Shown: piece by piece, positions 2,514 to 56,525 of the stretch
Layout: the number at the start of each line of letters is the position of its first letter
Numbering within the stretch: the first letter of the stretch is position 1
Assembly (NCBI GenBank): GCA_046597055.1
Contig: JBKJLC010000101.1
Location: 1 to 64,000, forward strand
Reading direction: 5' to 3'
DNA: 64,000 nt
Source: Kofleriaceae bacterium
GTDB taxonomy: Bacteria > Myxococcota_A > Polyangia > Haliangiales > Haliangiaceae
Made by a program: the position numbers and the translations under genes
Notes under the pieces: generated by a model
Told to the model about the DNA's origin: nothing
The model's input: the letters and a program-made list of their open reading frames with translations, nothing else
The model's database searches: none

Positions 2514-2521
2514 CGACCCAC

Positions 2522-2904
<383 letters not shown>

Positions 2905-2908
<4 letters not shown>

Positions 2909-3189
2909 GGCTCTGTCGCGTCCTCGGCAACGTGACCGCGACCGTGAAGCACCCGGCCTTTCACGGCCGCACGCTGCTGGTGGTCCAGCCGCTCGAACCC
3001 GGCGGCGCCGACGCTGGCGACAGCTTCATCGCGGTCGACCACGCCCAGGCCGGGCCCGGCGACCGGGTGCTGGTCCTCACCGAGGGCAACGGCGTCCGGC
3101 AGATCTTGAAGATGGGCGATCAGGTGCCGATCCGCTCGCTGGTCGTCGGCATCGTCGACGCGGTCGACCTGGCCGAGGGCGAAGCGTGA
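2905..3189 (+). CDS. EutN/CcmL family microcompartment vertex (BMC-P) protein
   Basis: [16 protein letters not shown]...LLVVQP...[18 protein letters not shown]...VVGIVD; ATGA overlap with upstream gene. Confidence 0.93.
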
Positions 3190-4492: not shown

Positions 4493-4504
4493 GCCCGCCT
4501 CCGG

Positions 4505-4972: not shown

Positions 4973-5040
4973 CTCCAGAGCCTCCCCACCGGCAGGCGTG
5001 CTGTCAACCGCGTCAGCCCCCGACGGGCGCGGGGACGGCG

Positions 5041-5499: not shown

Positions 5500-5558
5500 C
5501 TCTCGATAGTGCCACAACCTGCCGCAAGCCCGCGCGAGGCGGATCCGGATTGGCGAGC

Positions 5559-8019: not shown

Positions 8020-8203
8020 GCGAGCTCGAGCACCACCGACCCCGCGAACCTGGTTCGCGTGTGCGCAGTCCCGACCGTTCACCCGAGATCCGTCCGGTGT
8101 GCGAACCGCACCTTCGATCATCGACATGCATGCGCGCCTGTGAGGTGCCGGACGCTTCTCGGACCCCATTGATAGATGGCCGTAATCGGACCACAACGAG
8201 ATG

Positions 8204-9871: not shown

Positions 9872-9887
9872 CCTGCCCCGGAGAATC

Positions 9888-10751
9888 ATGCCGATCACAC
9901 CTCGCCTCGCGCCGGGCCGCGCCCTCTCGCTCGCACTGTTCGTCCCGCTGGCGTTCTTCGCCGCCCGCGCCGACGCCGATCCCACCCGCACGCCGGTCCG
10001 CCGGGTGCCCACCCCGGCTCCGGCCCCCGGCCCAAGCGCCGCTCCCGCCCCCGCCGTGACCGCCGACGACTGGCTGCGCATCGGCCTCGAGCGCTACGAG
10101 CGCGGCAACTTCGTCGGCGCCATCGAGGCCTTCGAGCGCGGCCAGGCCCTGTCGCCGCGCCCGGCCCTGGTGTTCGCGATCGCCCAGGCCCACCGCCGCC
10201 GCGGCGACTGCACCCGCGCCCGCGCCTACTTCGACGCCTTTCTCGCCACCGCGAGCACCCCGCAGCAGATCGCCGCCGCGCGCGATCAGCGCGACCGCTG
10301 CGTCGACGCACCGGCGCCGCCGCCAGCGCCGGCCCAGGCCGCGCCCGGCCCCGCGATCATGCGCGCCCCATCGCCACGGTCGTCCGCGCCGACCGTCTGG
10401 CGCGACCCGATTGGCCTCGCCGCTGGCGGCACTGGCCTCGCCCTGCTCGGCACCACCGTCGCGCTCTTCGTCAGCGCGGGCAGCGCGGCGGACGACGCCG
10501 CGGTCGCGCCCGATCACGAGCGCCACCGCGTCCTGCGCGAGCGCGCCGAGACCCGCCAGCTGCTCGGCACGATCACGCTGGCCGCGGGCGTCACCGCCGG
10601 CGCGGTCACCGCCTGGCGGATCTGGCGCCTCCGCGATCACGGGCCCCGCGAGTCGCGCGAACCGGCGCTGTCGTTCGCGCCGATCATGACGCTGCCGAGC
10701 GCGCGCGAGCCGGCGGCCGCCGTCGGCATCGCCGCCCGAGGGAGCTTCTGA
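9888..10751 (+). CDS. secreted/membrane TPR protein
   Basis: Signal peptide, TPR-like helices (G...YERGNF..AI.AFE...FAIAQAHR..G.C..A..YF..FL), C-terminal hydrophobic segments ending GSF. Confidence 0.8.
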   Translation: MPITPRLAPGRALSLALFVPLAFFAARADADPTRTPVRRVPTPAPAPGPSAAPAPAVTADDWLRIGLERYERGNFVGAIEAFERGQALSPRPALVFAIAQAHRRRGDCTRARAYFDAFLATASTPQQIAAARDQRDRCVDAPAPPPAPAQAAPGPAIMRAPSPRSSAPTVWRDPIGLAAGGTGLALLGTTVALFVSAGSAADDAAVAPDHERHRVLRERAETRQLLGTITLAAGVTAGAVTAWRIWRLRDHGPRESREPALSFAPIMTLPSAREPAAAVGIAARGSF

Positions 10752-41863: not shown

Positions 41864-43135
41864 CTACCAGGGCGAGCTATAGACCTCGACGGTCACCGGC
41901 TGGGTGCGCTGGCCGTCGATGGTGGCGTCGACCACGACGCGGCAGCTGCGCTCTTCGCCGGGGGGCGGGCACGCCGGCGGGGCGCGTCCCTCGATGGCCG
42001 TGCCGACCAGGCCGGCGGTCGCGCCGCAGGTGTTCGAGACCTCGCGATACCGGATCTGGCCGCCGCCGGTGTTGAGCACGACGAGCGGGAGCGCGCCCAG
42101 GCTCTTCGGGGTGGTGCCGGTCGCGCAGCCCAGCGAGAAGTAGCCGGACGGACTGGCCTGGACCAGCCCGCTGGTGGCGTCGCGGTAGCGCAGCAGCGGC
42201 GTGCGGTCGGTGGCGGCCGCGAGCTGGGCGGCGAGGTCGGCGCCCTCCGAGGTCACGTTCGAGAACATGACGGAGGTCAAGCGAGCGCCGCCGCGGAAGT
42301 AGTCGCGGACCACCACCCGATCGGCGATCCGCGAGAACGACAGCACGAGGTCCTCGCCGTCCCGCACGAAGATCGATTCGTCGTTGTTGTGCAGGTAGAC
42401 CCCGCGGAAGATGACCCGGAGGTCACCGCTCTTGTCCTCGATGGTCTCGGTCCCGCCGGTCCCGCCGTTGTCGATCACGTAGGTGTCGTTGCCTTCGTCC
42501 CCGACCAGCAGATCGTCGCCGGCGCCGCCGAACAACAGGTCGTCGCCCTGGTACCCGTACAGCCGATCGTGGCCGTCGCCACCGTCGAGCACGTCGTCTT
42601 CGCCGAAGCCATAGAGCCGATCGTTGCCCGCGTGGCCGACCAGCGCGTCGATCCGGCGGCTGCCGCGGAGCCGATCGTTACCGGTCCCGCCCTCGATCAC
42701 ACGGCGCAGGTCGAACGGCACCGGGGTGCCGGTGCCGCGCCGGTCGTTGTTCCAGCGGGTGCCATCCTCGAAGCGGATCGAGCGGGCCCCGATCGCACAG
42801 TCCTCGCCCATCGTGCGGTAGCTACGCACCAGCGCGGTATCGCCGGGCGCGCCGAACAGGATCACGTCGCCGCCGAACGGCAGCGCGATCACGTCGTCCG
42901 CGGCGATCCCGATCACCTCGAGCACGCTGTCGGGGTACCCGGAGCGGCCGCAGTACTCGCGCACCGCGACCCGCTGGAAGCCGCCACCGGCGGTGAAGTG
43001 GAACGTGTGCGTCTCGCAGAAGTCGCCATCACATCGGGCGACCGCCTCCACGGACGACCGGCCGTCGTCCTCCAGGTCGTCGACGCCACAGGAGGCAAGC
43101 AAGAGGGCCAGCAGGATCAGGAGGGAGCGCTTCAT
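41864..43135 (-). CDS. lipoprotein with RTX (hemolysin-type Ca-binding) nonapeptide repeats
   Basis: Lipobox LASC; GGTGNDRL, GHAGNDRL, GGDGHDRL, GGAGDDLL, GDEGNDTY; RDGEDLVL. Confidence 0.88.
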   Translation of the reverse strand: MKRSLLILLALLLASCGVDDLEDDGRSSVEAVARCDGDFCETHTFHFTAGGGFQRVAVREYCGRSGYPDSVLEVIGIAADDVIALPFGGDVILFGAPGDTALVRSYRTMGEDCAIGARSIRFEDGTRWNNDRRGTGTPVPFDLRRVIEGGTGNDRLRGSRRIDALVGHAGNDRLYGFGEDDVLDGGDGHDRLYGYQGDDLLFGGAGDDLLVGDEGNDTYVIDNGGTGGTETIEDKSGDLRVIFRGVYLHNNDESIFVRDGEDLVLSFSRIADRVVVRDYFRGGARLTSVMFSNVTSEGADLAAQLAAATDRTPLLRYRDATSGLVQASPSGYFSLGCATGTTPKSLGALPLVVLNTGGGQIRYREVSNTCGATAGLVGTAIEGRAPPACPPPGEERSCRVVVDATIDGQRTQPVTVEVYSSPW

Positions 43136-43222
43136 CTGCCGACTTCTAGCAGCACGGCATTAACGTTTCTACATTGATCGTCGATGAAACATGTACGCCT
43201 ACCCGGCCGCCTGGCGAGCCGG

Positions 43223-45109
43223 TCAGCGCGGACGGCGACCGGCGCGGACCAGCAGCAGCGCGACGGCGACGACCAGGGCCAGGCCGGCGAGCTGGCCGGG
43301 CACGCCGGCCAGCAGGGTCCCCTGCGGCCGACTGACCCCGGCCGCGCCGACCAGCGCGGCGACCGCCACGCCGGCCAGCCCTTCGCCGGCGATCATCCCG
43401 GACGCGGCCAGCACGTCGGGCGCCGGTTCGCCCTCGGCGAGCGGGGGCCGGCGGGCGTCGACGATCCGACGGACCACGCCGCCGACCAGGATCGGGGTCA
43501 TGGCGCCGAGCGGCAGGTACACGCCGATCGCGAAGGTGAGCGCGTCGACTCGCGCGAACATCGCGGCGAGCGCCAGCCCGGCGCCCGCCAGTAGCAGCGC
43601 CCAGGGCAGCGTGCCATCGAGGCCACCCTCGATCACGGTCTTCATCAAGGTCGCCTGCGGCGCCGGCAGCTCCTTGGAGCCGAACTGGGCGCTGGCGCCC
43701 AGAAAGAGCAGCGTCGCAGCCACCGCCCAGCATGCGGTCGCCGCGCCCAGGTACTGGCCGAGTTGCTGGCGCGCCGGGGTGGCGCCGACCAGCTGACCGG
43801 TCTTGAGGTCTTGCGAGATGTCGCCGGCCTTCGACGCCGCGATCGCGACGATCGCGCCAGTCAAGAGCACCGCGACCTTGGCCGCGGCCGAGGTCCAGCC
43901 CAGCGCAGCGAACAGCGCGCCCACCACCAGCACGGTGACCAGGCAGATCGCCGAGGTCGGCTGCGACGACACCCCGACCTGGCCCACGATCCGCGCGGCG
44001 ACCGCGACGAACACCAGCCCGAGCACGCCCACCACCACCGCCGACACCAGCCGCTGCGGCAGCGTCGCGCCCGCACCGAGCAGCCCGGGGACCAGCGCGA
44101 CCGCCAGCACCACGGCGGCGATCCCGAGCGCGATGACCCGACCGGGCACGTCGCGATCGCGGCGGTCACCGGCGGCCGCGTCGCCGCCGTCGCGGCGCAT
44201 CCCGGCGGCCACCGCCGCGAACGCGCGCACCATCGCCGGCCAGACCTTGACGACGGTGACGATGCCGGCCAGCGCGACGGCGCCAGCCCCGATGAAGCGG
44301 ACGTGCGAGCCCCACACGCTGGCCGGGTCGACCGGCGCGCCGGCCCCGGCGGCGGTGTAGACGACCAGCGGGATGATCATCAGCGACGAGATCAGGCCGC
44401 CCGAGACCACCACCGCGGCCGGCCGGTAGCCGAGGATGTAGCCGACCGCGACCAGCGCGGGCGCCACCTCGAGGGCGAGCTCGCCGCCGGGCAGCCCGGG
44501 GATCGCGACCAGCAGCTCCGAGGGGGCTACCCGCAGCAGATCGAGGGCGATCTTGGCGATCGCGCCGAGCGCGAGGCCACCAAAGATCCAGCGACCGCCG
44601 GTGAAGCTGCCGGTGGAGGCGCGCAGCACGTCGGCGCAGGCGCGGCCTTCCGGATACGGGAGCTCGGCGGCGGCGCGCACGATCAGCAGCCGGCGGAGCG
44701 GGATCATCGCCGACACGCCGAGGATCCCGCCGCACAGGGTGAGGCCGACGATCTGCAGGTACGACGGGGGCTGGCCCCACAGGTAGAGCGCCGGCACCGT
44801 GAAGATGGCGCCGGTGGCCAGCGCCGTGGAGGCCGAGCCGATGGTCTGGGCCATGTTGGCCTCGAGGATCGAGGCGCGGGCACCGGTGGCGCGCAGGACC
44901 GCCACGGTCATCACCGCGATCGGGATCGAGGTCGACACCGTCATGCCGACGCGCAAGCCGAGGTAGGCGTTGGCGGCGCCGAAGATCGCGCCGAACACCA
45001 CGCCGAGCAGGATCGCGCGCACCGTGACCTCGGGGCCAACATCGGCGGGCAGCGTCGGCGCTGGCAGCGAGGCGGTCACGGGCGTCGAGGCGATGGTACC
45101 AGTGCTCAT
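43223..45109 (-). CDS. OPT family oligopeptide transporter
   Basis: TVRAILLG, NAYLGLRVG.TVSTSIP, ILEAN..QT.GSA, LPYPEG.ACA, SQDLKTG..VGATP..QQ, APQATLM, FAIGVYLP, ASG.IAGE. Confidence 0.95.
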   Translation of the reverse strand: MSTGTIASTPVTASLPAPTLPADVGPEVTVRAILLGVVFGAIFGAANAYLGLRVGMTVSTSIPIAVMTVAVLRATGARASILEANMAQTIGSASTALATGAIFTVPALYLWGQPPSYLQIVGLTLCGGILGVSAMIPLRRLLIVRAAAELPYPEGRACADVLRASTGSFTGGRWIFGGLALGAIAKIALDLLRVAPSELLVAIPGLPGGELALEVAPALVAVGYILGYRPAAVVVSGGLISSLMIIPLVVYTAAGAGAPVDPASVWGSHVRFIGAGAVALAGIVTVVKVWPAMVRAFAAVAAGMRRDGGDAAAGDRRDRDVPGRVIALGIAAVVLAVALVPGLLGAGATLPQRLVSAVVVGVLGLVFVAVAARIVGQVGVSSQPTSAICLVTVLVVGALFAALGWTSAAAKVAVLLTGAIVAIAASKAGDISQDLKTGQLVGATPARQQLGQYLGAATACWAVAATLLFLGASAQFGSKELPAPQATLMKTVIEGGLDGTLPWALLLAGAGLALAAMFARVDALTFAIGVYLPLGAMTPILVGGVVRRIVDARRPPLAEGEPAPDVLAASGMIAGEGLAGVAVAALVGAAGVSRPQGTLLAGVPGQLAGLALVVAVALLLVRAGRRPR

Positions 45110-45981
45110 GGGGTTCCTGCCGGCACGGCGAGCCTGCGCCGCGCGCGCAGATCGAAGGTGTCGCCGTCGCCCAGCGGGTGGGTGACCAGGCCCTCGACGT
45201 CGGCGGGGGCGGCGCGGGGGTCGCGCGGGCGGCGGGCTCGGGCCCCGTCGTAGACGATCACGCTGCCGCTGAACACGTGCATGACGCCGTCGGCGCGCAG
45301 CCAGATCGCCGCGCCCTCGTCGACGCCCACGCCCAGGAGCTCGGGGTGGTCGAGCACCGCCGAGACCAGCCGGCGCTGCCGGTCGCGCACCACGAAGTGG
45401 GTGTCGAACAGCAGCCCCGGCGCCAGATCGAGGCCACGGCCGAGCAGGGTCGCCCCGGCCCGGATCACCCGGGTATCGCCGTCGCCGGTCAGCATCAGCC
45501 CGGACTGGCACGCCGTGCCCGCGCTGGTGCCACCGACCGGGCCGCCGCGCGCCTGCAGCGCGAGCAAGGCGGCGTGCAGCGGGGTGTCGACCAGCCGCGC
45601 CGTGATCCGGCGCTGGTCACCGCCGGCGAACCAGACCGCGGTGGCCTGGTCAACCGCGCGCACGTACGCCGCCCGCGCCGCGTCGCGCCGGTCGTCGACG
45701 TGGATCACGGTGACGCTGGTGACGCCGTGCTGGCCGAACAACCCCACGTAGTCGCCGCCGGCGGGCCGGCTGTCGCCGCTGGCCAGGGGCAAGACCACGA
45801 TGCGGGCGCCGGCACCGCCGGCGAGCTCGACGAAGCGGGCCACCGCCGCCGTCGGCTTGGCGCCACCGCCGACCAGCACCAGGTCGCCGCGGCGCTCCCT
45901 GGGTGCCATCACCGCCGGGGACGGCGCGCACGCCGCGAGCAGGATCGCCAGCAGCGCCAGGCCCGTGATCTCAGTACGCAT
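45106..45981 (-). CDS. cyanophycinase (peptidase S51) with lipoprotein signal
   Basis: Lipobox LAAC; LVLVGGG, FAGGDQ, GTSAG (catalytic Ser), DTHF..RDR..RL (His and Arg cluster), GVDE (Glu). Confidence 0.88.
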   Translation of the reverse strand: MRTEITGLALLAILLAACAPSPAVMAPRERRGDLVLVGGGAKPTAAVARFVELAGGAGARIVVLPLASGDSRPAGGDYVGLFGQHGVTSVTVIHVDDRRDAARAAYVRAVDQATAVWFAGGDQRRITARLVDTPLHAALLALQARGGPVGGTSAGTACQSGLMLTGDGDTRVIRAGATLLGRGLDLAPGLLFDTHFVVRDRQRRLVSAVLDHPELLGVGVDEGAAIWLRADGVMHVFSGSVIVYDGARARRPRDPRAAPADVEGLVTHPLGDGDTFDLRARRRLAVPAGTP

Positions 45982-48295
45982 AACGCACCCCCAGGATGAT
46001 CTCGAACGGCCGCTCGACGCTGCGCACCGCGCGGAAGTACGAGGTGGTCTCGCGGAACCCGGTCACGGTGTCGGCGGCCAGCAGGTTGCGCACGTCGACG
46101 CTGCCGAGCCAGCGGCCGGGCCCGGGCAGCGGCAGCGCGCGCGCGACGCGCAGGTCGACGACGTGGCGCGCCGGGTAGCGGTAGCCGCCGCGGCCGGCAA
46201 GGTCGTAGACGAAGATGCGCGGGCCGCTGGTCGGCTGGACCCGGAGCAACCGCGAGTGATAGGCGCCCGAGGTGAACCCGTAGTCGAGCCAGGCGCGCAC
46301 CCGCCCGGGCAGATCGGCGGCCAGCTCGGCGTGCGCGCGCACCCGCTCCTGGTCCGCCATGTTGCCGGTCGCGTTGACCGAGCCGCTGGGATCGCGCCAC
46401 TCCTCCGACAGGCCGTACGCCGAGTCGAGATTGCCGCGATCCCAGGCGAGCTCGACGTCCCCACGCACGGTCAGCCAGCGGGTCACCGCGGCGTCGACGT
46501 CGAGCCGCAGCCCGTGGTACCTGCGGCGCGCGCCCGCCGGGTTGCCGATCTGGTAGGCGGGCCGCTCGCCGGCCGGCAGCTCGTAGTAGCGGAAACGGTC
46601 GGCGGGCGCGTCGCCGAGGAGCGTCTCGCGCTCGACGTACGCGCCCTCGGCGAAGCGACGATCGACCAGGCCGAGCAGATCGCCGAACCGGCGCAGCTCG
46701 TAGCGTACGCCGACCTCGACGCGCTCGTCCGCTACGTGGCGAGCACCGACGACCAGGCGGTCGACCCACGGGTGGCGCACGTCGGGATCCACCTCGCCCA
46801 GCACGGGCTCGAAGGTCCGGTCGAGCCGCCAGGCTGGATCGCCGATCGACGGTGGCGTCGCCAGCGGCTCGCCGGTCCAGTCCCAATACTCGAGCGGCGA
46901 GTAGGCGGCGCCGCTGCGGGCGCGCCGGTAGAAGCTGGGGGTCAGCTGCTGGTGGTGGCGACCGGCCCGCAGGTACAGGCTGGTGGCCCGGGTGGCCCCG
47001 AGTCCGGCGTCGACGGCGAGGCGCGGCGACAGCGTCCAGGTTTGCCACTGGGCAGGCGCATCGGTGAAGCCACCGACGTGGCGCTCGGCGCGGACCCCGA
47101 GCGACATCGCGACGGCGTCGCCGAGCTCGACCCGATCTTCGGCGTACAGCGCGGTCGCGAGCTGGCGGACCTTGGCGTGGAGCTCGTCGCCTCGATCGCT
47201 GGCGTACAGCTCCCAGCTGGCGCGCTCGGCCTCGTCGAACCGGTCGACCGGGGCGCCGCTGGCGTCGCTCGGCAGGATGTCGACGAAGGTGAAGCCGCCG
47301 TTGCGGGTCTCATCCTCGTCGTCGGCGAGGTGCTCGACCTGGACGCCCAGGGTGAGCGTGTGAGCGTCGGAGCCCACCAGCACGCCGTCGGCGAAGCCGC
47401 TGGCCGACAGGTCGGCACGCTGGCGACGCGACCGGTGGCGCCGGGTGAACGGGTGGTTGCCCCAGCCCACGTAGTTGTCGAGGTTGAGGTGGCCCGGCGT
47501 GGCCAGGCCGCCGCGGGCGTTCCAGTCATCGCGGTCGAGGGTCAGGTCGTAGACCGCGCTCAGCTCGAGGCGCGGCGCCAGCTGATGGCGCAGGGTCGCG
47601 ATCACCACGGTCTGATCGGCGAGGTGGTCGCGCCCGGCGGAGGGTCGGTCCCACGCCGACAGCCCGGCGTCGGCGACCCGCAAGGCATCCCAGCGGGCGC
47701 CGAGCGTGACGGCGGTGGTCGGGGTCGGCTGCCATCGCGCGTTGATCGAGGTGCGCGGCGCCCAGCGCGCCTCGTCGCGGCCGGCGCCGAGCAGCGAACC
47801 CGCGGTCCGCTCGTCGATCGCCTCGGCCCACACCGTCGCGCAGTACGGCCGCAGCGCGCCCCAGAGCTCGGCACGCAGGCGGTGGAAGTAGCGCAGATCA
47901 CCGCCGACCAGATCGGTGGCCTCGGTGAGCGGGTGGCGCGCCTGCAGGCCGACGGCATCCAGCGTGCGCGGCAGCAGGGGTCCGGCGCTGAACGCCTCGT
48001 CGAGCCTGAACGCCAGGGGTTCGTCGTCGCCCACCGGCAAGAGCCACGGCGCCGACAGGAAGCCATGGCGGGTCGCGTCGCGCCCGGGCCGGGCGGTGCG
48101 TCCGTCGTTCCAGCCGCGGAGCTGGGCGCCGGCGTCCCCGGCGCCGCGCGGTACCTCCGGGCGGATCCACAGCCGCGACAGCTCGACCACGCCCGGACGA
48201 CCGCAGCGCTGGGCCGTGGCCTCGATCGGCGCGACCGCCAGCCCCAGCGCGCCCACCACCAGCGCGAGCGCGGCGCGGCTGGCTGGCCGGGTCAA
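45971..48295 (-). CDS. TonB-dependent/Oar-like outer-membrane beta-barrel
   Basis: TTG start overlapping the M20 stop; signal peptide; LYAEDRV..LGVR.E, LSPRL, VDLRV, VRNLL, C-terminal P..I.LGVRYAY. Confidence 0.8.
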   Translation of the reverse strand: MTRPASRAALALVVGALGLAVAPIEATAQRCGRPGVVELSRLWIRPEVPRGAGDAGAQLRGWNDGRTARPGRDATRHGFLSAPWLLPVGDDEPLAFRLDEAFSAGPLLPRTLDAVGLQARHPLTEATDLVGGDLRYFHRLRAELWGALRPYCATVWAEAIDERTAGSLLGAGRDEARWAPRTSINARWQPTPTTAVTLGARWDALRVADAGLSAWDRPSAGRDHLADQTVVIATLRHQLAPRLELSAVYDLTLDRDDWNARGGLATPGHLNLDNYVGWGNHPFTRRHRSRRQRADLSASGFADGVLVGSDAHTLTLGVQVEHLADDEDETRNGGFTFVDILPSDASGAPVDRFDEAERASWELYASDRGDELHAKVRQLATALYAEDRVELGDAVAMSLGVRAERHVGGFTDAPAQWQTWTLSPRLAVDAGLGATRATSLYLRAGRHHQQLTPSFYRRARSGAAYSPLEYWDWTGEPLATPPSIGDPAWRLDRTFEPVLGEVDPDVRHPWVDRLVVGARHVADERVEVGVRYELRRFGDLLGLVDRRFAEGAYVERETLLGDAPADRFRYYELPAGERPAYQIGNPAGARRRYHGLRLDVDAAVTRWLTVRGDVELAWDRGNLDSAYGLSEEWRDPSGSVNATGNMADQERVRAHAELAADLPGRVRAWLDYGFTSGAYHSRLLRVQPTSGPRIFVYDLAGRGGYRYPARHVVDLRVARALPLPGPGRWLGSVDVRNLLAADTVTGFRETTSYFRAVRSVERPFEIILGVRYAY

Positions 48296-49482
48296 CCCAG
48301 CCACCGGGTCAGCGCGACGGCGTTCAGCGCGGCTCGCCGCGCGATCGACGCGACCACCAGGTACTCGTCGTCGCTGTGGAAACCACCGCCCTCGGGCCCG
48401 ACGCCATCGAGACAGGTCGCGCCGGCGGCGGCGACGTGGTTGATGTCGCCGACCCCGGCGGTGGCGACGCCGGTGACCCGGAGATCGAGCGCCACGCCCG
48501 CGGCGACATAGTGGGCGAGGACGGCGTCGGTGCCGGGGGTCAGCGCCATCGCGGGCGTCTCGAGACGAGCGTCGACCTCGATCCGCGCGCCGGTGTCCTG
48601 GGCGAGGCGAGTGGCCAGCGCGGTCAGCGCCGCCGGCACCGCCGCACCGCGCTGCGGATCGAAGAACCGCCACTCGAGCTCGAAGCTGGCGCGGTCGGGC
48701 ACGCGGCCCAGCGAGCCCGGCGTCACGCTGACCGCGCCGCCCGGCGACACCGTGAGGTCCGGGCTGGACGCCTCGAGGGCCTCGGCGGCCTCGACGAAGC
48801 GGGCCAGCACGGTGAAGGCATTGATCGCGCGATCATGGTCGATGCCGGCGTGGCCGGTGCGGCCGTGGACGGTGATCCGCGCCCGGCCGTAGCCCTTGCG
48901 CGCCACCACCAGCCCGCCGCACTCGCGCGCCGCCTCGAAGCACAGCGCCAGATCGACGCCGGCGGCGGCGGCCTGCACCACCGGCTGCCCGGTCGGCGAG
49001 CCCACCTCCTCGTCGGACACCAGCACCAGCCGCGGGTCGAGGCGGCCGAGCACCCCGGCGCGCTGCAGCACCGCCAGGGTCACCAGCGCGGTCACCACCC
49101 CGCCCTTCATGTCGGCGATCCCGGGCCCGCGCCAGCGGTCGCCGTCCCGGGTGAGCGCGAACCGGTGGTCGGGTGGGAACACGGTGTCGAGGTGACCGAG
49201 CAGCAAGACCCGCGGCCCGGCCGCGCCGGCCCGGTGCCCGACCAGGTGCCGACGCGACAGCAGGCGATCCGGCGCGTCGGGATCAGCGACCTCGACGACC
49301 GGCGCGGCGACGGTGAAGCCCAGCTCGGCGAGCACCGGCCCGAGCCGAGCGTGGCAGGCGCCTAGCCCGGCGGCGTTGTCGGCGTGCGAGTTGATCGCGA
49401 CCAGGTCGGCCAGCAGCGGCAGCGCCCAGGCCTCGGCGTCTTGCGCCAGGGCCAGCGCCTCGCGTGCGGGCAGCGGCGTCAT
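48292..49482 (-). CDS. M20 family metallopeptidase (carboxypeptidase G2-like), cytoplasmic
   Basis: GHLDTV, GPGIADMKGG, SDEEVGS, FEA, GHAG, DGVGP.GGG.H..DEY; no signal peptide. Confidence 0.9.
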   Translation of the reverse strand: MTPLPAREALALAQDAEAWALPLLADLVAINSHADNAAGLGACHARLGPVLAELGFTVAAPVVEVADPDAPDRLLSRRHLVGHRAGAAGPRVLLLGHLDTVFPPDHRFALTRDGDRWRGPGIADMKGGVVTALVTLAVLQRAGVLGRLDPRLVLVSDEEVGSPTGQPVVQAAAAGVDLALCFEAARECGGLVVARKGYGRARITVHGRTGHAGIDHDRAINAFTVLARFVEAAEALEASSPDLTVSPGGAVSVTPGSLGRVPDRASFELEWRFFDPQRGAAVPAALTALATRLAQDTGARIEVDARLETPAMALTPGTDAVLAHYVAAGVALDLRVTGVATAGVGDINHVAAAGATCLDGVGPEGGGFHSDDEYLVVASIARRAALNAVALTRWLG

Positions 49483-51005
49483 CGCAGCTCCAGGTCGGAC
49501 TCGAACCGGGGCGCGACCGAGGCATAGGTGGTGCCCCGGAAGACCACGCCGGTCAGCGCGTCGTACCGATCACCGACCCGGGGCCGCGGATCGTAGAGAC
49601 TCTGGTCGACGCGGACGGTCGCCGAGCCGCCGGCGCGATCATCCTGAGCCAGGTAGCTGTAGGCGTCGACCATCGCCTGCGAGACGCGCAGGGTGGAGGC
49701 CACGACCAGCACGCTCTCGAGCCGGGTGAGGTCGTCGACCGCGATGTCGATCGGCGTCGCCACCGGCTGGCCGCGGCCGGTCACCTGCAGGTCCTGGTAC
49801 TCGATCGTCGCCCGGGCGCCGATGACGTCGTACCGGCCGGTGACCGTGACCAGGTCGCCGATCGTCGGGGCAGCGGTGGGCGCGGTCCGGACATCGCGCA
49901 GGAACACGCCGGCGCCAGCGCCGCCCGCCGGGGCCTGGGCATAGAGATCGACCTGACCGGTGGCGGGATCGACGTAGTCGATCGCGGTGACGATCAGCGT
50001 CGCGAGGGTGACCTCGCTGCCCGGGGCGATCGAGCCGTCGTGGAGGCGATAGGGCGTGGGCGCGACCGCCGTGCCGGCCAGATCGGCCTGGCGCCGCGGG
50101 ACCAGCGCCACCGCGGGCTGACCGGCGTCGTCGACGAACGGAAACAGCGGGCCGGTGATCCGCGTGAAGACCTGGCCGGCCGACGGCTGGAGGTCGAACA
50201 GCAGGGTTTCGATCAGGAGCTTGGCGCCCTCGGGCTGGCTGACCGCGGCGACCTCCCAGGTGTACGCATCGACGGTCGGGTTGGTGACGACCACGTCGGT
50301 CACCGAGACCAGGCAGCCATCCCATCGGGTGGCGGCGAGCTCGGCGATCGGGACGGTGTCGACCGTCGGGGCCGCGGTCGCCGTGGTGGTGACCTCGGCG
50401 AGCTCGATCACCGAGCGACCGTTCCGCTCGCCGGTGACGCCGCGGACCCGGACCACGTCACCTTCCGCCACCGGCGGCGCGCCGGCGGCCCGACCGTCGA
50501 GCACGTAGATCCCGGAGTACGGACCGCCCCCGGGGTCCTGCATCCAGAAGTCGGTGAAGCCGGCGTCGGGGGCGATCGCGAACACCACACCCTCGGCCTC
50601 GATCGAGGTGGCCAGCGCCACCGCGCCGCGCTGGATGGTGGCGACCGTCACCGCGCGCCGCCCGGCGACGCTGAGCGCGAGCGAGGCGCTTGCCGCCTGG
50701 TACGCGCAGTTCACGGTGACCGCGCCCGCCGCCTGCGCAGTGAACACGTCGCCGGCCAGGGTGCCGATCGCGGCGTCGCCCGCGAGGTTGCAGCTGGCCA
50801 GCTCGGTGACCGTTGCCGAGCTGCCATCGTCGTAGATCGCGCGCACCACCAGGGTGACCGTCTGGCCGACCTCGGGCGCGGTGCTGCCGGTGGTGGCGAT
50901 GCTCAGGCCCACCACGGCATCGACGCTGGCGCAGCCGGCGACCAGCGCGAGCGCCGCGACGGCGACGCACCGGGGTGCGCAGAACGACGGGATGAGCACG
51001 TGCAT
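49479..51005 (-). CDS. lipoprotein with Ig-like domain and tandem OB-fold-like modules
   Basis: AGGAGG SD; lipobox VAGC; two copies of (FW/LY)xQ....G..G(I/V)(Y/F)...GD.V.V.G and of G......TG......PR...DL. Confidence 0.8.
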   Translation of the reverse strand: MHVLIPSFCAPRCVAVAALALVAGCASVDAVVGLSIATTGSTAPEVGQTVTLVVRAIYDDGSSATVTELASCNLAGDAAIGTLAGDVFTAQAAGAVTVNCAYQAASASLALSVAGRRAVTVATIQRGAVALATSIEAEGVVFAIAPDAGFTDFWMQDPGGGPYSGIYVLDGRAAGAPPVAEGDVVRVRGVTGERNGRSVIELAEVTTTATAAPTVDTVPIAELAATRWDGCLVSVTDVVVTNPTVDAYTWEVAAVSQPEGAKLLIETLLFDLQPSAGQVFTRITGPLFPFVDDAGQPAVALVPRRQADLAGTAVAPTPYRLHDGSIAPGSEVTLATLIVTAIDYVDPATGQVDLYAQAPAGGAGAGVFLRDVRTAPTAAPTIGDLVTVTGRYDVIGARATIEYQDLQVTGRGQPVATPIDIAVDDLTRLESVLVVASTLRVSQAMVDAYSYLAQDDRAGGSATVRVDQSLYDPRPRVGDRYDALTGVVFRGTTYASVAPRFESDLELR

Positions 51006-51059
51006 CGGAGCCTCCTGGGGGTCGGCATGCGATGCCGACTCACTAGGAGATGCCAGATC

Positions 51060-51105
51060 TGAAACTACAATGACAACACAAATCCTCGTGAAACAATAAC
51101 TTCAC
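51060..51105. promoter_or_regulatory. candidate RpiR operators
   Basis: AT-rich island with GTGAA-N8-TTCAC (51088-51105) and related TGAAACTACAATGACA (51060-51075). Confidence 0.55.
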
Positions 51106-51185
51106 CGGCGAGGGATCGCCCGATCGGGCGCGCCATCCCCGCCGATGAGCCGCCCGGCACCAGGGCAATCACGACGGCGCCGGCG

Positions 51186-52202
51186 TCAAGCCGGGAGGCC
51201 CATGACCCAGCCGGGGGCGCCGGGCGCGGCCCGGAGCGCGCCGGCCAGGTCCGCCGGGACGATCGCCCGCTCGGCCTCCCGCCGGCACGGCCCGGCGACC
51301 GCCACGAAGCCGGCCCGGTCATCGCGCCCCACCACCGTCCAGCCCGCGTCGGCCACCTCGCCGATCTCGAGCGCCACGAGCCGGGTCGAACCGACCGCGG
51401 TGATCTGGCTGGTCTGCGCCATCAGGTGGGGCCCGCCGTCGAACGGATCGATGCGACCGGCGTGGCGAAAGCCGACGTCGAGGAGCATCCGCTCGACCCC
51501 GCGGGTGTCGGGCCCGACCTGCCCGATCACCGCCTGGGCCGCGTCGGGTAGCAGGCAGGCGTAGATCGGCCCCTCGGGAAACAGGGCGCGGATGAACTCC
51601 TTGTCCTGCCGTGACCGCCGATCGGCCTCGGCGTAGGACAGCCCGGTGAAGCGACCGCCCAGGCTGTCCCACAGCAAGCTCGAGCCGTCGGCCTCGAACG
51701 GCGGCAACAGCTCGGCGAGCACCTGATCGCGGAACCAGGTCCGGTGAGCGGCGATGAAGAGGAACCGGACGTACGACAGCAGCTTGCCGGCCCGCCGACC
51801 GCCACCGCGGTACGCAGGCAGCAGGATCAGCCCGCCCAGCTCGGACGGGCCGTCGAACGTGTAGCCGATCCGCAGCACCTGGTGCGAGAACCGCCGGCCC
51901 AGCCCGGCCGAGCAGCGTTCCTCGGTGGTGACGTCGAACCACACGTGCGGTGCCTCGGGCGTGCCGTGCTGGGCGTGGATCATCGACGTGCCGACCACCC
52001 GGCCGCCCTCGGCGAGGTCGCACAGGACGAACACGTACTCGCGCGCGGCGGGCGGCAGCACCTCCGCGAACGAGCGCCGCGAGCGCTCGATCAGGGCGGC
52101 CAGGATCTCGCGGTCGGCCGGCAGGTTGACGCTGTCGAGGTGACGGGCCACCTGCAGCAGATCGTCGAGGTCGTGGGCACGGACATCGCGAACGACGAGC
52201 AT
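51186..52202 (-). CDS. astA: arginine N-succinyltransferase
   Basis: NLPAD...L...I.RS..SF, YVFVL.D..G.VVGTS.I, SELGGL.L.P.YR, GKLLS..RFLFI, SP/SLLWD.LG..F.GL.Y.EAD, P.GPIY..LL, IDPFDGGP. Confidence 0.9.
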   Translation of the reverse strand: MLVVRDVRAHDLDDLLQVARHLDSVNLPADREILAALIERSRRSFAEVLPPAAREYVFVLCDLAEGGRVVGTSMIHAQHGTPEAPHVWFDVTTEERCSAGLGRRFSHQVLRIGYTFDGPSELGGLILLPAYRGGGRRAGKLLSYVRFLFIAAHRTWFRDQVLAELLPPFEADGSSLLWDSLGGRFTGLSYAEADRRSRQDKEFIRALFPEGPIYACLLPDAAQAVIGQVGPDTRGVERMLLDVGFRHAGRIDPFDGGPHLMAQTSQITAVGSTRLVALEIGEVADAGWTVVGRDDRAGFVAVAGPCRREAERAIVPADLAGALRAAPGAPGWVMGLPA

Positions 52203-52276
52203 GGATTCTCCGGTCGACCCGTCGGCGCTTCGCCCGGGAGGCATTTTTGTATCACGACAGAAACCCGGAGAATATT

Positions 52277-53140
52277 CTACTTCACCATGATCTCGTCGGC
52301 GGCCGCCTCGGTGAGCGCGGCGACGTTGGCCAGCGCGCGCTTCTTGTCGGCCAGCGCGAGCTCGGTCACGATCGCGTTGAGCACCACCACCGCGCCCGAC
52401 ACCGAGTTGGTGTACAGCAGGTTGTCGGTGCGGGCGTAGACGGAGGCCTCGGCGAGCGCGCACAGCGGCGACCGCGCCGAGTCGGTGAGCGCGAGCACCG
52501 GCAGGCCGCGCCCGGCGGCGCGGCGGGCGGTATCCACGGTCCGGGTCGAGTACGGCGGGAACGCGATGGCCAGGACCACGGTCTTGGGCGGGAGCAGCTC
52601 GACCTGCTCGGCGAGGCCGAGCGCCTCGCGGGTCAGGAAGCTGGCGCGGCATCCGACCTGCGACAGCTGGTAGGCGGCGAGCCGGGCCAGGATCGAGCTG
52701 ACCCCGAGGCCGACCGCGACGGTCAACTCGGCCTTGCGCAGGCGACCGACGAACTTCTTGAGCTGGGTCGGATCGAGGTCCTCGACCGTGCGGTTGATGT
52801 TCTCGACCTCCTGTCGAGCGACCGCCACGGCGGTCTCGGACGGCTCGCCGGTCGGGCGGGCGAAGGCAAAGCGATCCTCGGGCCGCAACACCTTGGTCGC
52901 CTCTTCCATCAGCGCGGTGCGCAGCTCGAGGTAGCCACCGAAACCGAGGTCGCGCGAGAGCCGGACCATGGTCGCCTCCGACACCCTGGCGGCCCGGGCC
53001 AGCTCGTGGACCGACATCGAGAACGCGGTGCGGTGGTGCTCGATCAGGTAGTCGGCGGCCCGCCGCTTCTGCCCCGACAGGCTGTGGTACTGGCGCTCGA
53101 GGGTCTCGCGGACCGGGGGAGTAACGCGGGCGGCCTTCAC
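52277..53140 (-). CDS. MurR/RpiR family transcriptional regulator (HTH + SIS)
   Basis: LS......ADY, ELA....VSEATMVR....LGF.GY, G.G.S, F.PY, LTDS..SPL. Confidence 0.93.
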   Translation of the reverse strand: MKAARVTPPVRETLERQYHSLSGQKRRAADYLIEHHRTAFSMSVHELARAARVSEATMVRLSRDLGFGGYLELRTALMEEATKVLRPEDRFAFARPTGEPSETAVAVARQEVENINRTVEDLDPTQLKKFVGRLRKAELTVAVGLGVSSILARLAAYQLSQVGCRASFLTREALGLAEQVELLPPKTVVLAIAFPPYSTRTVDTARRAAGRGLPVLALTDSARSPLCALAEASVYARTDNLLYTNSVSGAVVVLNAIVTELALADKKRALANVAALTEAAADEIMVK

Positions 53141-53249
53141 GCCGGCAACATATCAGCCTGCCTGTGGACGCCCGCGCCCGCGGCCGCGGCGATCGTGCGC
53201 GCGGGTCCCTCGACCGACCCCGGCCAGGGGCATCATGGCTGGCGTCCGA

Positions 53250-53688
53250 TCAGAACTTGCCGACCACCGGGCGCGGACCGGCGTCGTCGAGCAGGTCGAC
53301 CGGGCTGCACTTGTCGATGTGGCCGAGCAGGTTGCGGTACAGGCCGAAGCCGCACAGCTTGCGCAGCCGCGGCTCGAAGCCGCGCGCGATCTCGAGCGGG
53401 ACGCCGAGCTGCTGGTTCTCCTGCTGGCGCATCCAGCCGGCGCAGTAGTTCATCGCGATGCCGGTGCGGCGGGTGTCGGTGCGGTTGGCGCCGCCGCCGT
53501 GCCAGAGGCTGCCGTTGAAGACCAGGACGCTGCCGCGACGCATCTCGGCGGCGACGGTCGGGTGGGCGACGCCGAGCTCGGGCGCGCGATCGGCCCGGTG
53601 GCTGCCCGGCACCAGCCGGGTGGCACCGTTGGCCTCGGTGAAGTCGGTGAGCGCCCACATGGTGTTGCAGATGATCGCGACGACGCAC
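53250..53688 (-). pseudogene. C-terminal fragment of phytanoyl-CoA dioxygenase family protein
   Basis: CNTMWALTDFTEANGATRLVPGSH, GSV..F.GSLWHGGGAN, YCAGW.RQQEN; N-terminal HxD part absent. Confidence 0.8.
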
Positions 53689-53988: not shown

Positions 53989-54774
53989 ATGCCAGCGCGC
54001 ACCGGCGCGTCGCCGGTTCACGGCCGCCTCGTCAACACCTTCGCCGCCGTCGCCATGCTAGCCGCGGGCGCGTCGGGGGCCGTCGCCCAGCCGAGTGCCT
54101 CGCCGGAGCCGCCGACGGCTCCGCCGGACGGCTCGTCCAGCGGAGCGGCCCCCGCGCCGGCCGCGAGTCCCGCAAGCCATGCCGCGGCCCCCGCGTCGCA
54201 GCCCACGAGCAGCGACGCCGGACTCGCGGCCGAGCTAGCCGCTGCCGAGCGACGCGCGGCGGAGGCCACAACCGATGAGGCAGCCGAGGCGGCCCTCGAG
54301 CCCGAGCGCAGCGGACTGACGTTCGAGGTCTCGGTGGGAGTCGGCGGCATCTACGTTGCTGTCGACAAGGCTGATGACTCCAGGCATCCGTCGCAGACCG
54401 GCATCAATGTTGGCGTCGGCGGCTTCGTCGAACCGCGCGCGGCCCTCGGGGTTCGCATCGCCAGCCTGTCGACCACCCAGCGCGACATCATGGGCACCGC
54501 GGTACGCACGACGACCGCGTTCGCCGGTCCGACCCTGCAGTACTGGGCCAGCGACCGCGTCTTCGTCGGGGTCGGGCTCGGCGTCGGCTTCGCCTACAGT
54601 GACCTTGCTGGCGTTGGCGGGGTGAAGGGACTCGCAGGCGATCTGCGCCTCGGCTACAACGTGCATCGCACGCGCAACCACGCCTTCTACGCAGCGGCCG
54701 AGGTCACCCCGGCCCTCTACGACACCAGCAAGCACGTCGGTGTCAGTCTTCAGCTCGGATGGCAGATGCTGTAG
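53989..54774 (+). CDS. secreted protein with small outer-membrane beta-barrel-like C-terminal domain
   Basis: Signal peptide, Pro/Ala linker, alternating hydrophobic strands ending LQLGWQML. Confidence 0.7.
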   Translation: MPARTGASPVHGRLVNTFAAVAMLAAGASGAVAQPSASPEPPTAPPDGSSSGAAPAPAASPASHAAAPASQPTSSDAGLAAELAAAERRAAEATTDEAAEAALEPERSGLTFEVSVGVGGIYVAVDKADDSRHPSQTGINVGVGGFVEPRAALGVRIASLSTTQRDIMGTAVRTTTAFAGPTLQYWASDRVFVGVGLGVGFAYSDLAGVGGVKGLAGDLRLGYNVHRTRNHAFYAAAEVTPALYDTSKHVGVSLQLGWQML

Positions 54775-54824
54775 CCGACTGCGATCGTGACGCTCACATG
54801 GGCGGCTGCCGGTCTCTACCGGGT

Positions 54825-56525
54825 ATGGTCAGCCGACAGCTGCTCGCGGAAAACGCCTACGAGGTCCCGGACGCCCCCCTGCCGCGGGCCCGGGCCGCGC
54901 CGGGCAAGACGTCGATGACGTCGAGGCTGGCGCCACGCCCGCAGCAGGTCGTGTTCCGGGTCGAGAGCGCCGAGGCCGCGGCGGTGTTCGCCGACCGCTT
55001 CGGACCGCGCGACGGCAACGGTGTCGCCGCGGGCGCCGGCGAGGTCGTGGCCCAGGCGGGCGCCAGCACCGGCGCGCCGTTGCCCCCCGGGGTGCGCGAG
55101 CGGTTCGAAGGCTCTCTCGGCGCCGACCTGTCCGCGGTGCGGGTCCACACCGGCCCCGCGTCGGCCGAGGCGGCCGGCGCGGTCGGCGCGCGCGCGTACA
55201 CCACCGGCGATGACATCCACTTCGGTGCCGGCCAGTACGCGCCGGAGGATCCGTTCGGGCTGCACCTGCTCGCGCACGAGGTCGCGCACACGGTGCAGCA
55301 GAGCGGCGGTCCGGCGACGACGCAGTTCAAGCTCGCGGTGTCGTCGCCCGGCGACGCTGCCGAGCTCGAGGCAGACCGCGCCGCCGACGCCATGATGACG
55401 GGTGCGCCGGCGCTCGGGATCACGAGCGTTGCCACCGGCGCGATGCGCAGCCCGCTGCCCGGCGCCGGCGGCGCCAAGCCCCCCGCCGTCTCCAGCGGTG
55501 GCTTCGCGGTCTCGAAGAAGTTCCCGCTGGGCAAGACCAAGCTCAGCGTGTTCGAGCTCGAGGGCGAGGGCACGATCGCGGCTGAATTCAAGCCGAAAGG
55601 CGTGGGCGGCGACGACAAGGGCGGCGCCACGGGCACGAGCCCGATCGAGATCAAGGGGGACACCGCGGCCGGCGGCGACAGCGCCAAGCTGGCAGCCGAG
55701 AAAGAGCTCGAGCTTGGCTGGTCGTTCAAGCCCAAGCTGGTCGGCGAGCTGGAGGTCGGCAAGGACGGCATCAAGGGCAAGGTCGGGGTGACCGCCGAGC
55801 GCAAGGGTCTCGACCTCGGCGCGCTCGAGCTGGGCGCCAACGAGTGGAGCATCGACCTCGCCAGCTGGGACGGGAAGGACGGCTTCAGGCTCGCGACCGC
55901 CGGCTGGAAGTGCAGCGCCAAGATCGCCGCTGGCTCGATGAAGGTCCACGGAAAGGACCACGACGTCACCGGGACCCTGAGCGTGGAGCTCAAGATGCAC
56001 CCGTGCTGGGAAGAGATCGCCAGGTTGATCGCCCAGCGAATCGCGACCATGTCCGCCGCGCAGCTGGCGGGCGCCGCCGGCGCCGCGGGCCTGCCCATCG
56101 CGGTATTCCTGGGCGGCCTGGTCATGTGGGCCAAGGCCGGCCACGAGTTCGACGCGGTCTCCGCGAAGATCGAGGGCACCGCCTCGGCCTGCCGGGCCGC
56201 GGCCGCCGAGGCGCTCAGCGGCGAGCACGCGGCCGTGATCCTCGGAGGCATCGACCTGGCCGCGGGTGTGGGCGACCTCGCCAAGGACATCCGAGCCAAG
56301 GTCGCCGCCGAGCTGAAGGTGCCCGAGGGCGCGCTGGCCCAGGTCGCGAAGGCCAAGCCCAACCTCCCGAACCTGATCTACGCCGCGGCGTGGAAGCAGA
56401 AGTGGCCACCGCTCAAGGCGGCCCTGCTCGCCCAGTGGCAGGACACGTTCTGGACCAGCTACAAGTTCGAGCGGCAGTGGCTGGAATCGTTCGAGAGGGG
56501 TCCGTTCGCGCCGCAGCACCTGTGA
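54825..56525 (+). CDS. DUF4157 (eCIS-core-type) protein with unknown C-terminal domain
   Basis: G.PLP..VR.RFE.SLGADLSAVRVH, GARAYT.G.DIHF..G.Y, LLAHEVAHTVQQ, E.EAD.AA. Confidence 0.9.
   Translation: MVSRQLLAENAYEVPDAPLPRARAAPGKTSMTSRLAPRPQQVVFRVESAEAAAVFADRFGPRDGNGVAAGAGEVVAQAGASTGAPLPPGVRERFEGSLGADLSAVRVHTGPASAEAAGAVGARAYTTGDDIHFGAGQYAPEDPFGLHLLAHEVAHTVQQSGGPATTQFKLAVSSPGDAAELEADRAADAMMTGAPALGITSVATGAMRSPLPGAGGAKPPAVSSGGFAVSKKFPLGKTKLSVFELEGEGTIAAEFKPKGVGGDDKGGATGTSPIEIKGDTAAGGDSAKLAAEKELELGWSFKPKLVGELEVGKDGIKGKVGVTAERKGLDLGALELGANEWSIDLASWDGKDGFRLATAGWKCSAKIAAGSMKVHGKDHDVTGTLSVELKMHPCWEEIARLIAQRIATMSAAQLAGAAGAAGLPIAVFLGGLVMWAKAGHEFDAVSAKIEGTASACRAAAAEALSGEHAAVILGGIDLAAGVGDLAKDIRAKVAAELKVPEGALAQVAKAKPNLPNLIYAAAWKQKWPPLKAALLAQWQDTFWTSYKFERQWLESFERGPFAPQHL

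Follow-up and report, generated by a model that had tools for sequence, protein, structure and literature searches.

A candidate cyanophycin-scavenging locus with an exported cyanophycinase, a predicted outer-membrane transporter and its putative partner lipoprotein in a Kofleriaceae bacterium

A 64,000-nucleotide (nt) stretch of DNA from a Kofleriaceae bacterium (contig JBKJLC010000101.1; this whole stretch is hereafter the window) carries seven minus-strand genes that we read, with some reservation, as a locus for scavenging the polymer cyanophycin. They encode a regulator of the RpiR family, an AstA-family acyltransferase, a lipoprotein with immunoglobulin-like (Ig) and OB-fold domains, an M20 metallohydrolase, an outer-membrane barrel, an S51 cyanophycinase and an OPT-family permease (Table 1). 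The window corresponds to contig C129 of an 8.4-Mb metagenome-assembled genome (MAG) of 303 contigs, 94% complete and with 7.6% contamination, and its G+C content lies between 0.68 and 0.77. An earlier note, made from the letters of this DNA, had placed the seven genes at these positions with coupled junctions between five of them, and profile matches, structure models and the junctions as read in the sequence bear this out.

The lipoprotein and M20 genes meet in the tetranucleotide ATGA, as do the S51 and OPT genes; the M20 and barrel genes join at TTGA, or overlap by 13 nt if the barrel begins at GTG, and the barrel and S51 genes overlap by 11 nt. Upstream, rpiR and astA are 74 nt apart, and the 180-nt spacer between astA and the lipoprotein gene is AT-rich and contains a strong ribosome-binding site. 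Because of the four overlapping junctions and this spacer, the five genes from lipoprotein to OPT look like a single operon with rpiR and astA upstream. A promoter and terminator scan of positions 42,900–53,500 found a single promoter-like site, which is on the plus strand, together with two terminator-like sites, the latter a number within chance expectation; no conclusion is drawn from it.

Related loci were retrieved through the barrel alignment, one genome per species: four from Myxococcota MAGs (L013–L016) and two from Acidobacteriota MAGs (L017, the locus of reference genome G005, and L018). A further 20 Acidobacteriota loci were sampled through S51, non-randomly, as the 11 top-scoring after G005 and nine from further down the list; totals of 22 Acidobacteriota loci are these 20 together with L017 and L018.

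Table 1. Features of the locus in the window, and palindrome sites in related loci (positions within each named locus)
Feature	Position	Strand	Evidence or remark
RpiR/MurR-family regulator, 287 amino acids (aa)	52277..53140	-	Pfam HTH_6 60.9 bits, SIS 42.9 bits
AstA-family acyltransferase, 338 aa	51186..52202	-	Pfam AstA 314.6 bits
Palindrome TGAAA-N6-TTTCA, 1 mismatch	51089..51104		candidate RpiR operator, within the AT-rich promoter of the five-gene operon
Acidic Ig/OB lipoprotein, 508 aa	49479..51005	-	lipobox LVAGC; structure model
Cytoplasmic M20 metallohydrolase, 396 aa	48292..49482	-	Peptidase_M20 68.6 bits, M20_dimer 46.7 bits (both over their cut-offs)
Outer-membrane barrel, predicted TonB-dependent-transporter fold, 774 aa (TTG 48295) or 777 aa (GTG 48304)	45971..48295	-	fold search
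Lipoprotein S51 cyanophycinase, 291 aa	45106..45981	-	TIGR02069 147.9 bits (cut-off 126.6); lipobox LLAAC
OPT-family permease, 628 aa	43223..45109	-	Pfam OPT 260.9 bits; TIGR00733 294.7 bits (cut-off 182.5)
RTX-repeat calcium-binding lipoprotein, locus membership uncertain	41864..43135	-	HemolysinCabind 49.4 bits; lipobox LLASC; 88 nt after OPT
Palindrome sites, L013	7804-7819, 16496-16511
Palindrome sites, L014	7094-7139
Palindrome site, L015	5236-5251
Palindrome sites, L016	2679-2781
Palindrome site, L017	8768-8783
Palindrome site, L018	8783-8798
Palindrome sites, L025	6943-7094
Palindrome sites, L026	4913-5062

The S51 protein exceeds the cut-off of the cyanophycinase equivalog TIGR02069, the only NCBIfam model that it matches at E ≤ 0.01, and six of six orthologues do so at 169–194 bits. 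Among PDB sequences it matches the cyanophycinases 7uqv (E = 8.8e-29) and 3en0 (CphB, E = 7.3e-27). Ser153, His195 and Glu222 align to the catalytic triad of CphB, reported as Ser132, His174 and Glu201 (Law et al. 2009). The substrate pocket reported there comprises Gln101, Asp172, Gln173, Arg178, Arg180 and Arg183, and five of these six positions are retained, as Q123 (within GGDQ), D193, R199, R201 and R204. The triad, these five residues, and the GGDQ and D193-x-H195-x3-R199-x-R201-x2-R204 patterns are invariant in all seven orthologues; they include the residues that had first suggested a cyanophycinase (Ser/His/Glu, GGDQ and D.H...R.R..R). According to a passage of PMC12661447, His174 and Arg178 of CphB bind beta-(Asp-Arg)2. 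A lipobox is present on S51 in five of five Myxococcota copies, and the acidobacterial copies have ordinary signal peptides. Together, these observations support an exported enzyme with the sequence hallmarks of a cyanophycinase.

We placed this enzyme among its relatives with a maximum-likelihood, midpoint-rooted tree of 33 sequences, which splits into two clades with branch support of 100/99. Clade A comprises eight sequences, none with a signal peptide, and a homologue of the cyanophycin synthetase gene cphA adjoins five of them (four full-length; that at L036 in two pieces). Clade B comprises the other 25, the window enzyme included, all with a hydrophobic N-terminal segment as judged by eye. 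Every barrel-linked S51 sequence in the tree (17/17) falls in clade B, and the five from Myxococcota form one clade within it (support 100/98). Because the tree is rooted only at its midpoint, we claim no direction of transfer. The wider family is well populated: at least 120 proteins are 45–60% identical to the window enzyme, with names from Archangium, Thermoanaerobaculia and Acidobacteriota, and the S51 profile matches 102 of 301 sampled Acidobacteriota genomes at E ≤ 1e-40, a tally that includes one unpublished genome, G429, on which nothing else here depends. At one further locus, L021, a 773-aa open reading frame directly after the barrel gene (7903-10224) carries a PGA_cap domain, of the poly-gamma-glutamate capsule type, and extends across the place where S51 matches, perhaps because the two are fused or the frame was mis-called.

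That clade B is distinct, and that the equivalog score is modest, would also suit a reading that we consider very unlikely, in which clade-B enzymes are not cyanophycinases and the locus imports and trims other Asp-rich or isoaspartyl peptides, such as aged protein fragments or poly-aspartate-like polymers. In the phylum to which the window belongs, cyanophycinases exceed the cut-off in 68 of the 401 genomes sampled, most at about 250 bits, and those linked to a synthetase score about 250 bits versus 148 for the window enzyme. The remaining pocket position, Gln173 of CphB, is Thr194 in the window enzyme and is also Thr in L013, with Gln in the other five of the seven orthologues. We know of no clade-B S51 enzyme that has been assayed. 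The M20 protein, moreover, weakly matches a poly(aspartic acid) hydrolase in the PDB (E = 1.1e-8), and the peptides associated with OPT transporters are mostly tetra- and pentapeptides. Two related loci carry IadA, which passages of PMC10206079 describe as a general isoaspartyl dipeptidase. On the other side, the pocket of arginines and carboxylate that defines recognition of beta-Asp-Arg is invariant, no NCBIfam model other than cyanophycinase matches the window enzyme at E ≤ 0.01, and PepE matched only two of nine clade-B proteins scanned, weakly (28–33 bits against a cut-off of 156). Cyanophycin is the substrate that we retain.

The barrel was identified through its modelled structure. It has no match among PDB sequences at E ≤ 10, and its one Pfam match, PF25183, is sub-threshold (E = 0.0064). 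An AF2 model built on 15 relatives (pLDDT 77.5) was most similar in Foldseek to FusA, the ferredoxin importer (4zgv, E = 1.3e-23), then to FptA and YddB, among 205 PDB matches at E ≤ 0.001; VIA alignment of the barrel with PirA gave Z 24.1 and rmsd 3.1 over 426 aligned positions, and the structural alignments span model residues from about 46 to 777. Of the 15 proteins in the family, 11 match Pfam PF00593 (TonB_dep_Rec_b-barrel) at E ≤ 1, the strongest at 6.1e-11. The modelled barrel is of the TonB-dependent-transporter fold, which is that of a 22-strand barrel; the class was assigned from structure matches. Its N-terminal domain is short, about 100 residues (34–135), and structural alignments begin at model residues 35–52, opposite plug residues of BtuB, FhuA and FecA. 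A few residues past the signal peptide lies a conserved V-x-L-S-x-L-W stretch, with L45 and W46 invariant, which may correspond to a TonB box. The family numbers 15 proteins in a search of 5.8 billion, of which one carries a name from a Sandaracinus MAG, and its members at L017 and L018 are 920 aa long, with an extra CarboxypepD_reg domain.

The lipoprotein, whose lipobox is present in five of five Myxococcota orthologues, was modelled at pLDDT 86.1 as an all-beta protein in which a Big_2-type Ig domain leads into two OB-fold modules that each carry a further beta domain. The Ig domain aligns to LigA (Z 13.6, rmsd 1.9, 86 aligned) and the OB folds give Z of about 12; the best Foldseek match is the tandem HIN/OB protein p204 (E = 1.8e-9), and matches in a protein atlas, all below 0.9 and from OB and Ig families, serve as leads only. 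A search of 5.8 billion proteins returned nine relatives. The family is acidic, with a pI of 4.1–4.8 in 12 of 12 members, which suits a ligand bearing guanidinium groups.

When the barrel (residues 60–777) and the lipoprotein (residues 31–312) were predicted as a complex, ipSAE was 0.71 (runs of 0.69, 0.71 and 0.74), and the best of three controls scored 0.00. That mark is attained by 116 of 157 solved complexes versus 2 of 215 mismatched pairs, counts that serve as a rough calibration here, given that the input was our own alignments. The runs share at least 93% of contacts, and the pLDDT of the partner is at least 83. On the lipoprotein the predicted interface is formed by the Ig domain (32-63, 95 and 107-114), and on the barrel by residues 267-268, 287-289, 329-337, 372-376, 463-470, 494-502 and 579-581, which lie in or beside long connections between strands; residues 463-470 belong to a family-invariant AAYSPLEYW motif. 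Judged from the secondary structure of the model, these connections would face outward, as they do in transporters of this fold. The prediction supports the view that barrel and surface lipoprotein would form one machine.

What this machine would carry bears on the order of events. We favour import of cyanophycin chains or their breakdown products, with S51 acting in the periplasm; a possible though rather doubtful topology has the S51 lipoprotein exposed at the surface or released, so that the polymer is digested outside and the barrel imports beta-Asp-Arg or short oligomers. TonB-dependent transporters usually carry small ligands, the sorting of the S51 lipoprotein is unreadable from its sequence, and acidobacterial S51 enzymes, as noted, have ordinary signal peptides. 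According to passages of PMC10206079, cyanophycin does not dissolve at neutral pH, and CphE, a known extracellular enzyme, acts outside the cell. Set against this, the top Foldseek matches of the barrel include protein importers (FusA, YddB) with scores near those of siderophore receptors, and a multi-domain lipoprotein with a predicted docking site on the barrel is better matched to a polymer or oligomer than to a dipeptide of 290 Da.

The gene set is conserved, as the synteny comparison that the earlier note had called for makes clear. Lipoprotein, M20, barrel and S51 follow one another in the same order in four of four other Myxococcota loci, each with an RpiR gene beside them, and OPT follows S51 in three of the four; in the fourth, L015, the contig ends after an RpiR gene that comes next to S51 on its downstream side. 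Both Acidobacteriota loci found through the barrel carry RpiR, barrel, S51 and M20. Counted over all loci, barrel and S51 are paired in five of five Myxococcota and 12 of 22 Acidobacteriota, and an RpiR homologue adjoins six of the latter 22. Among the 20 Acidobacteriota loci sampled through S51, a CarboxypepD_reg barrel directly adjoins S51 in 10 and lies within 6 kb in one more. Also near S51 in this sample are a YfcC/DcuC-type transporter (6/20), an RpiR regulator (4/20), a GntR regulator (3/20), IadA over its cut-off (2/20, at 346 and 526 bits versus 331) and a cyanophycin synthetase (1/20); OPT, the OB lipoprotein and AstA are near it in none.

One of these loci, L039, reads RpiR-barrel-S51-M14-IadA-YfcC, so that IadA and YfcC appear to replace M20 and OPT around the same core of regulator, barrel and S51, a pattern that supports the cyanophycin reading. 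This replacement is our main argument that the pathway would yield beta-aspartyl dipeptides, with M20 and OPT as the probable hydrolase and carrier. The M14 gene there, between S51 and IadA (8900-10425), is of the zinc carboxypeptidase type (PF00246).

Profile scans of the window proteins agree with the earlier reading that the window holds neither a cyanophycin synthetase nor IadA or IaaA. Beyond the window, none of the six locus-bearing genomes has a cphA match over the cut-off, the best in the 94%-complete window genome reaching 111.7 bits against 850. In genome G003, which holds L015, a 366-aa open reading frame on contig C116 (10550-11491) gives a partial cyanophycin synthetase match (213 bits, profile positions 153-475), which may reflect a fragment or else a related ATP-grasp enzyme.

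A candidate regulatory site is shared by several of the loci. The palindrome TGAAA-N6-TTTCA lies, with one mismatch, 83–98 nt upstream of the lipoprotein start codon, and the 64-kb window holds two matches where 0.04 are expected. It recurs in the promoter regions of eight other RpiR-linked loci, from both Myxococcota and Acidobacteriota (Table 1), and was not found in those of L038 and L039; overall, it occurs 18 times in 181 kb of RpiR-linked loci and 5 times in the 265 kb of the remaining S51 loci. We propose TGAAA-N6-TTTCA as the candidate operator of this RpiR subfamily.

The link to arginine catabolism through the arginine succinyltransferase (AST) pathway is looser. The earlier note had proposed that the products enter AST, and an AstA-family gene is indeed present; however, its product falls below all NCBIfam AstA cut-offs (TIGR03243, 224.4 versus 284.35 bits; TIGR03244, 193.6 versus 391), the genome gave no match to AstB or AstE and at best 300 bits versus 579 for AstD, results that at 94% completeness do not prove absence, and AstA adjoins the locus in three of five Myxococcota and 0 of 22 Acidobacteriota. 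AstB is present in one of the five other locus-bearing genomes. A second AstA-family copy, 56% identical to the first, lies on contig C68 of the window genome, G000 (42822-43820; L040 8787-9821); a canonical AST operon around it was considered and rejected, its neighbours being unrelated. The genome thus has two AstA paralogues, neither within an AST operon, and no detected AstB, AstE or true AstD. Genomes with AstA beside the locus hold two AstA copies (3/3) and those without hold one (2/2), which marks the window copy as, by its distribution, an extra paralogue tied to the locus. In L013, RpiR and AstA are followed by the palindrome and then by a true AstD (726 bits versus 579), the only locus with one beside it. 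In L015 the lipoprotein gene is immediately preceded by one for an ArgD/AstC-family transaminase, and a divergent set encodes AstA, an AstD-like protein, glutamate dehydrogenase and a protein of the agmatinase family; this region (419-6488) could encode an arginine succinyl route with a ureohydrolase in place of AstB. In some relatives the locus is thus tied to succinyl-type arginine catabolism, of which the window genome shows the first enzyme only.

The M20 protein occupies the position where iadA or iaaA would be expected in a cyanophycin utilisation locus, neither of which is in the cluster. It is of the carboxypeptidase G2/ArgE-DapE type and has no visible signal peptide; its best NCBIfam match is the 'hydrolase' model PRK07338 (239 bits, below the cut-off of 357), and among solved structures carboxypeptidase G2 is closest to it (E = 1.9e-21). 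Residues H97, D99, D124, E158, E159, E183 and H369 are invariant in seven of seven orthologues, as are the H-x-D, DMKGG and DEE columns, and presumably, judging from M20 motifs, bind the two metal ions. No IadA over the cut-off was found in the genome. We favour M20 as the candidate beta-Asp-Arg dipeptidase. Unlikely in our judgement is a reading in which the locus does scavenge cyanophycin but M20 replaces the missing AstE, splitting N-succinyl-glutamate as the last step of a variant AST route, and that the beta-Asp-Arg dipeptide is split by an IaaA-type enzyme encoded elsewhere. Carboxypeptidase G2 acts on N-acylated glutamate, from which it releases the C-terminal glutamate; the genome yielded neither AstE nor AstB, AstA stands beside three of the five Myxococcota loci, and the AST-type genes of L013 and L015 point the same way. 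The genome also has one cytoplasmic IaaA-type gene, on another contig (297.8 bits), whose product could split the dipeptide. Yet M20 stays with S51 and barrel in seven loci with no nearby AstA (L014, L016, L017, L018, L020, L022 and L025), and because of this persistence we rank the AstE role below that of a dipeptidase. M20 is, besides, translationally coupled to the lipoprotein and barrel genes, and with AstD not over its cut-off in the window genome no N-succinyl-glutamate would be made.

Loci of this general kind are in print, and the novelty that the earlier note saw in a locus with its own barrel and binding lipoprotein was overstated. A cyanophycin utilisation locus was reported in the Bacteroidetes strain L21-Spi-D4 by Ben Hania et al. 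2017, as cited in PMC10206079, and Sharon et al. 2023 describe scavenging clusters of cyanophycinase, dipeptidase and transporter with iadA or iaaA (passages of PMC10206079); the term 'cyanophycin utilization locus' was met only in that paper and its preprint. Like these, the window groups a cyanophycinase, here an exported one, with a transporter and a presumed dipeptide-splitting enzyme, in a genome where cphA was not found over its cut-off. It differs in having M20 in place of iadA/iaaA, an OPT carrier, the barrel with its Ig/OB lipoprotein, RpiR, and a Myxococcota-like host. Candidate dipeptidases named in the available passages of Sharon et al. 2023 are S9, M14 and esterase-like genes, M20 not being among them (PMC10206079). 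The dedicated M14 hydrolase of cyanophycin dipeptides, CphZ/AotO, of the AstE/AspA family (Sharon et al. 2023; passages of PMC9974463), is likewise a metallohydrolase clustered with cyanophycinase in scavengers and was recruited from a deacylase family of arginine catabolism, whereas M20, a candidate for that role, has an unrelated fold.

A TonB-dependent receptor beside a cyanophycinase was reported in Citromicrobium sp. JLT1363 by Tang et al. 2012, who, in the passage concerned, list cyanophycin as a likely substrate of the receptor (PMC3400609). Both cases are interpreted as cyanophycin uptake; the earlier one is an adjacency in a single alphaproteobacterium, whereas the pairing described here recurs across loci, has a partner lipoprotein alongside it and is backed by the prediction of a complex. 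Flieder et al. 2021 found cyanophycinases with Sec signals in marine Acidobacteriota that have no cphA, one with an isoaspartyl dipeptidase, and read them as scavenging enzymes (PMC8528874). The window enzyme, also exported in a genome without cphA, falls in an Acidobacteriota-dominated clade; the available text of that account makes no mention of a barrel, M20, OPT or lipoprotein. SusCD-type utilisomes and the peptide importer RagAB (8aa0 and 6sln are among the structural matches of the barrel) similarly combine a TonB-dependent barrel and a surface lipoprotein in an operon with degrading enzymes, but the lipoprotein here is all-beta, with Ig and OB domains, and not helical like SusD and RagB, and the barrel, unlike SusC, has no N-terminal extension and only a short N-terminal domain. 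In titles, abstract openings and passages of the literature we met no description of an Ig/OB lipoprotein combined with a short-plug barrel, OPT, M20 and an RpiR operator, nor, among titles and abstract openings on cyanophycinase in myxobacteria and on cyanophycin with M20, any of the variant in the window. The idea of a cyanophycin locus is not new; the parts for capture, uptake and last cleavage differ from those of known loci.

Taken together, we consider it probable, though far from certain, that the locus serves to scavenge cyanophycin in a bacterium that does not make it, by means of a barrel-lipoprotein importer, an exported cyanophycinase, OPT and M20. The steps are inferred from gene content, folds and residue conservation. 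The acidic surface lipoprotein would attach by its Ig domain to that face of the barrel which bears the long loops, its OB modules holding cyanophycin chains or fragments, and the barrel would move the chains or their breakdown products to the periplasm. There the lipoprotein S51, acting as an exo-cyanophycinase, would cleave them to beta-Asp-Arg; the OPT permease may then carry beta-Asp-Arg over the inner membrane, and the cytoplasmic M20 may split it to Asp and Arg, the least certain step. RpiR would control the operon through TGAAA-N6-TTTCA, and the adjacent AstA paralogue may link the locus loosely to arginine use. The complete route first proposed, from surface capture to arginine catabolism, holds up in its exported S51, conserved gene set, predicted complex, acidobacterial module with IadA and cphA-free genomes, and is weak at the AST step and in its order of import before depolymerisation; that the polymer comes from lysed prey is speculation.

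Several further points weigh against this interpretation. Pfam Plug matches none of the 15 barrel relatives at E ≤ 1, and only three of the 20 Acidobacteriota loci sampled through S51 have M20 near it. Regulators of the RpiR/SIS kind usually respond to sugar phosphates, and cyanophycin is large and mostly insoluble, its import as a polymer through the barrel being our proposal. The locus is rare and patchy, since the barrel was not found at E ≤ 1e-20 in 400 other sampled genomes of the phylum, one of them of the same genus. OB folds typically bind nucleic acid, and the sole family match of the lipoprotein is to the N-terminal part of ExeM/NucH nucleases (30.7 bits). That the lipoprotein binds DNA seems to us unlikely, its family being acidic in every member and always found in the company of S51 and M20.

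A bolder version of the scavenging hypothesis, which we put forward only tentatively and with considerable doubt, would make the locus a polyamide utilisome. The Ig/OB lipoprotein on its short-plug barrel would feed cyanophycin chains to the periplasm for digestion by the anchored exo-cyanophycinase, OPT would import the beta-dipeptide as the first substrate assigned to its bacterial clade, and M20 would be a beta-Asp-Arg hydrolase of a fourth kind, unrelated to the others; the pairing of barrel and S51 might then mark an unrecognised, widespread uptake route in soil Acidobacteriota and some Myxococcota.

The flanks of the locus are unrelated to it and encode FG-GAP/DUF4215, RTX-repeat, PhyH-fragment and eCIS-core proteins. 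A homologue of the RTX-repeat lipoprotein (58% identical) adjoins OPT in L016 in the opposite orientation, and none was found in L013–L015. Upstream of rpiR, an open reading frame at 53250-54017 matches only positions 126-212 of the 213 in the PhyH profile, its C-terminal third, and may be a truncated gene; we rejected it as a locus member, having found no match in L013–L018. The eCIS core domain protein (54603-56525; PF13699, 101.5 bits) has no contractile injection genes beside it in the scanned part of the window.

Cyanophycin is a widespread bacterial nitrogen store, and we know of no established route by which it crosses the outer membrane of bacteria that do not produce it. The locus offers a parts list for such a route: a capture lipoprotein with a predicted docking site, a clade of exported cyanophycinases and a candidate operator. 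It also suggests a candidate substrate for bacterial OPT permeases and, in M20, a candidate new family of beta-Asp-Arg hydrolases. With the barrel-S51 core present in half of the 20 sampled acidobacterial loci, its relevance may extend beyond one uncultured soil bacterium.

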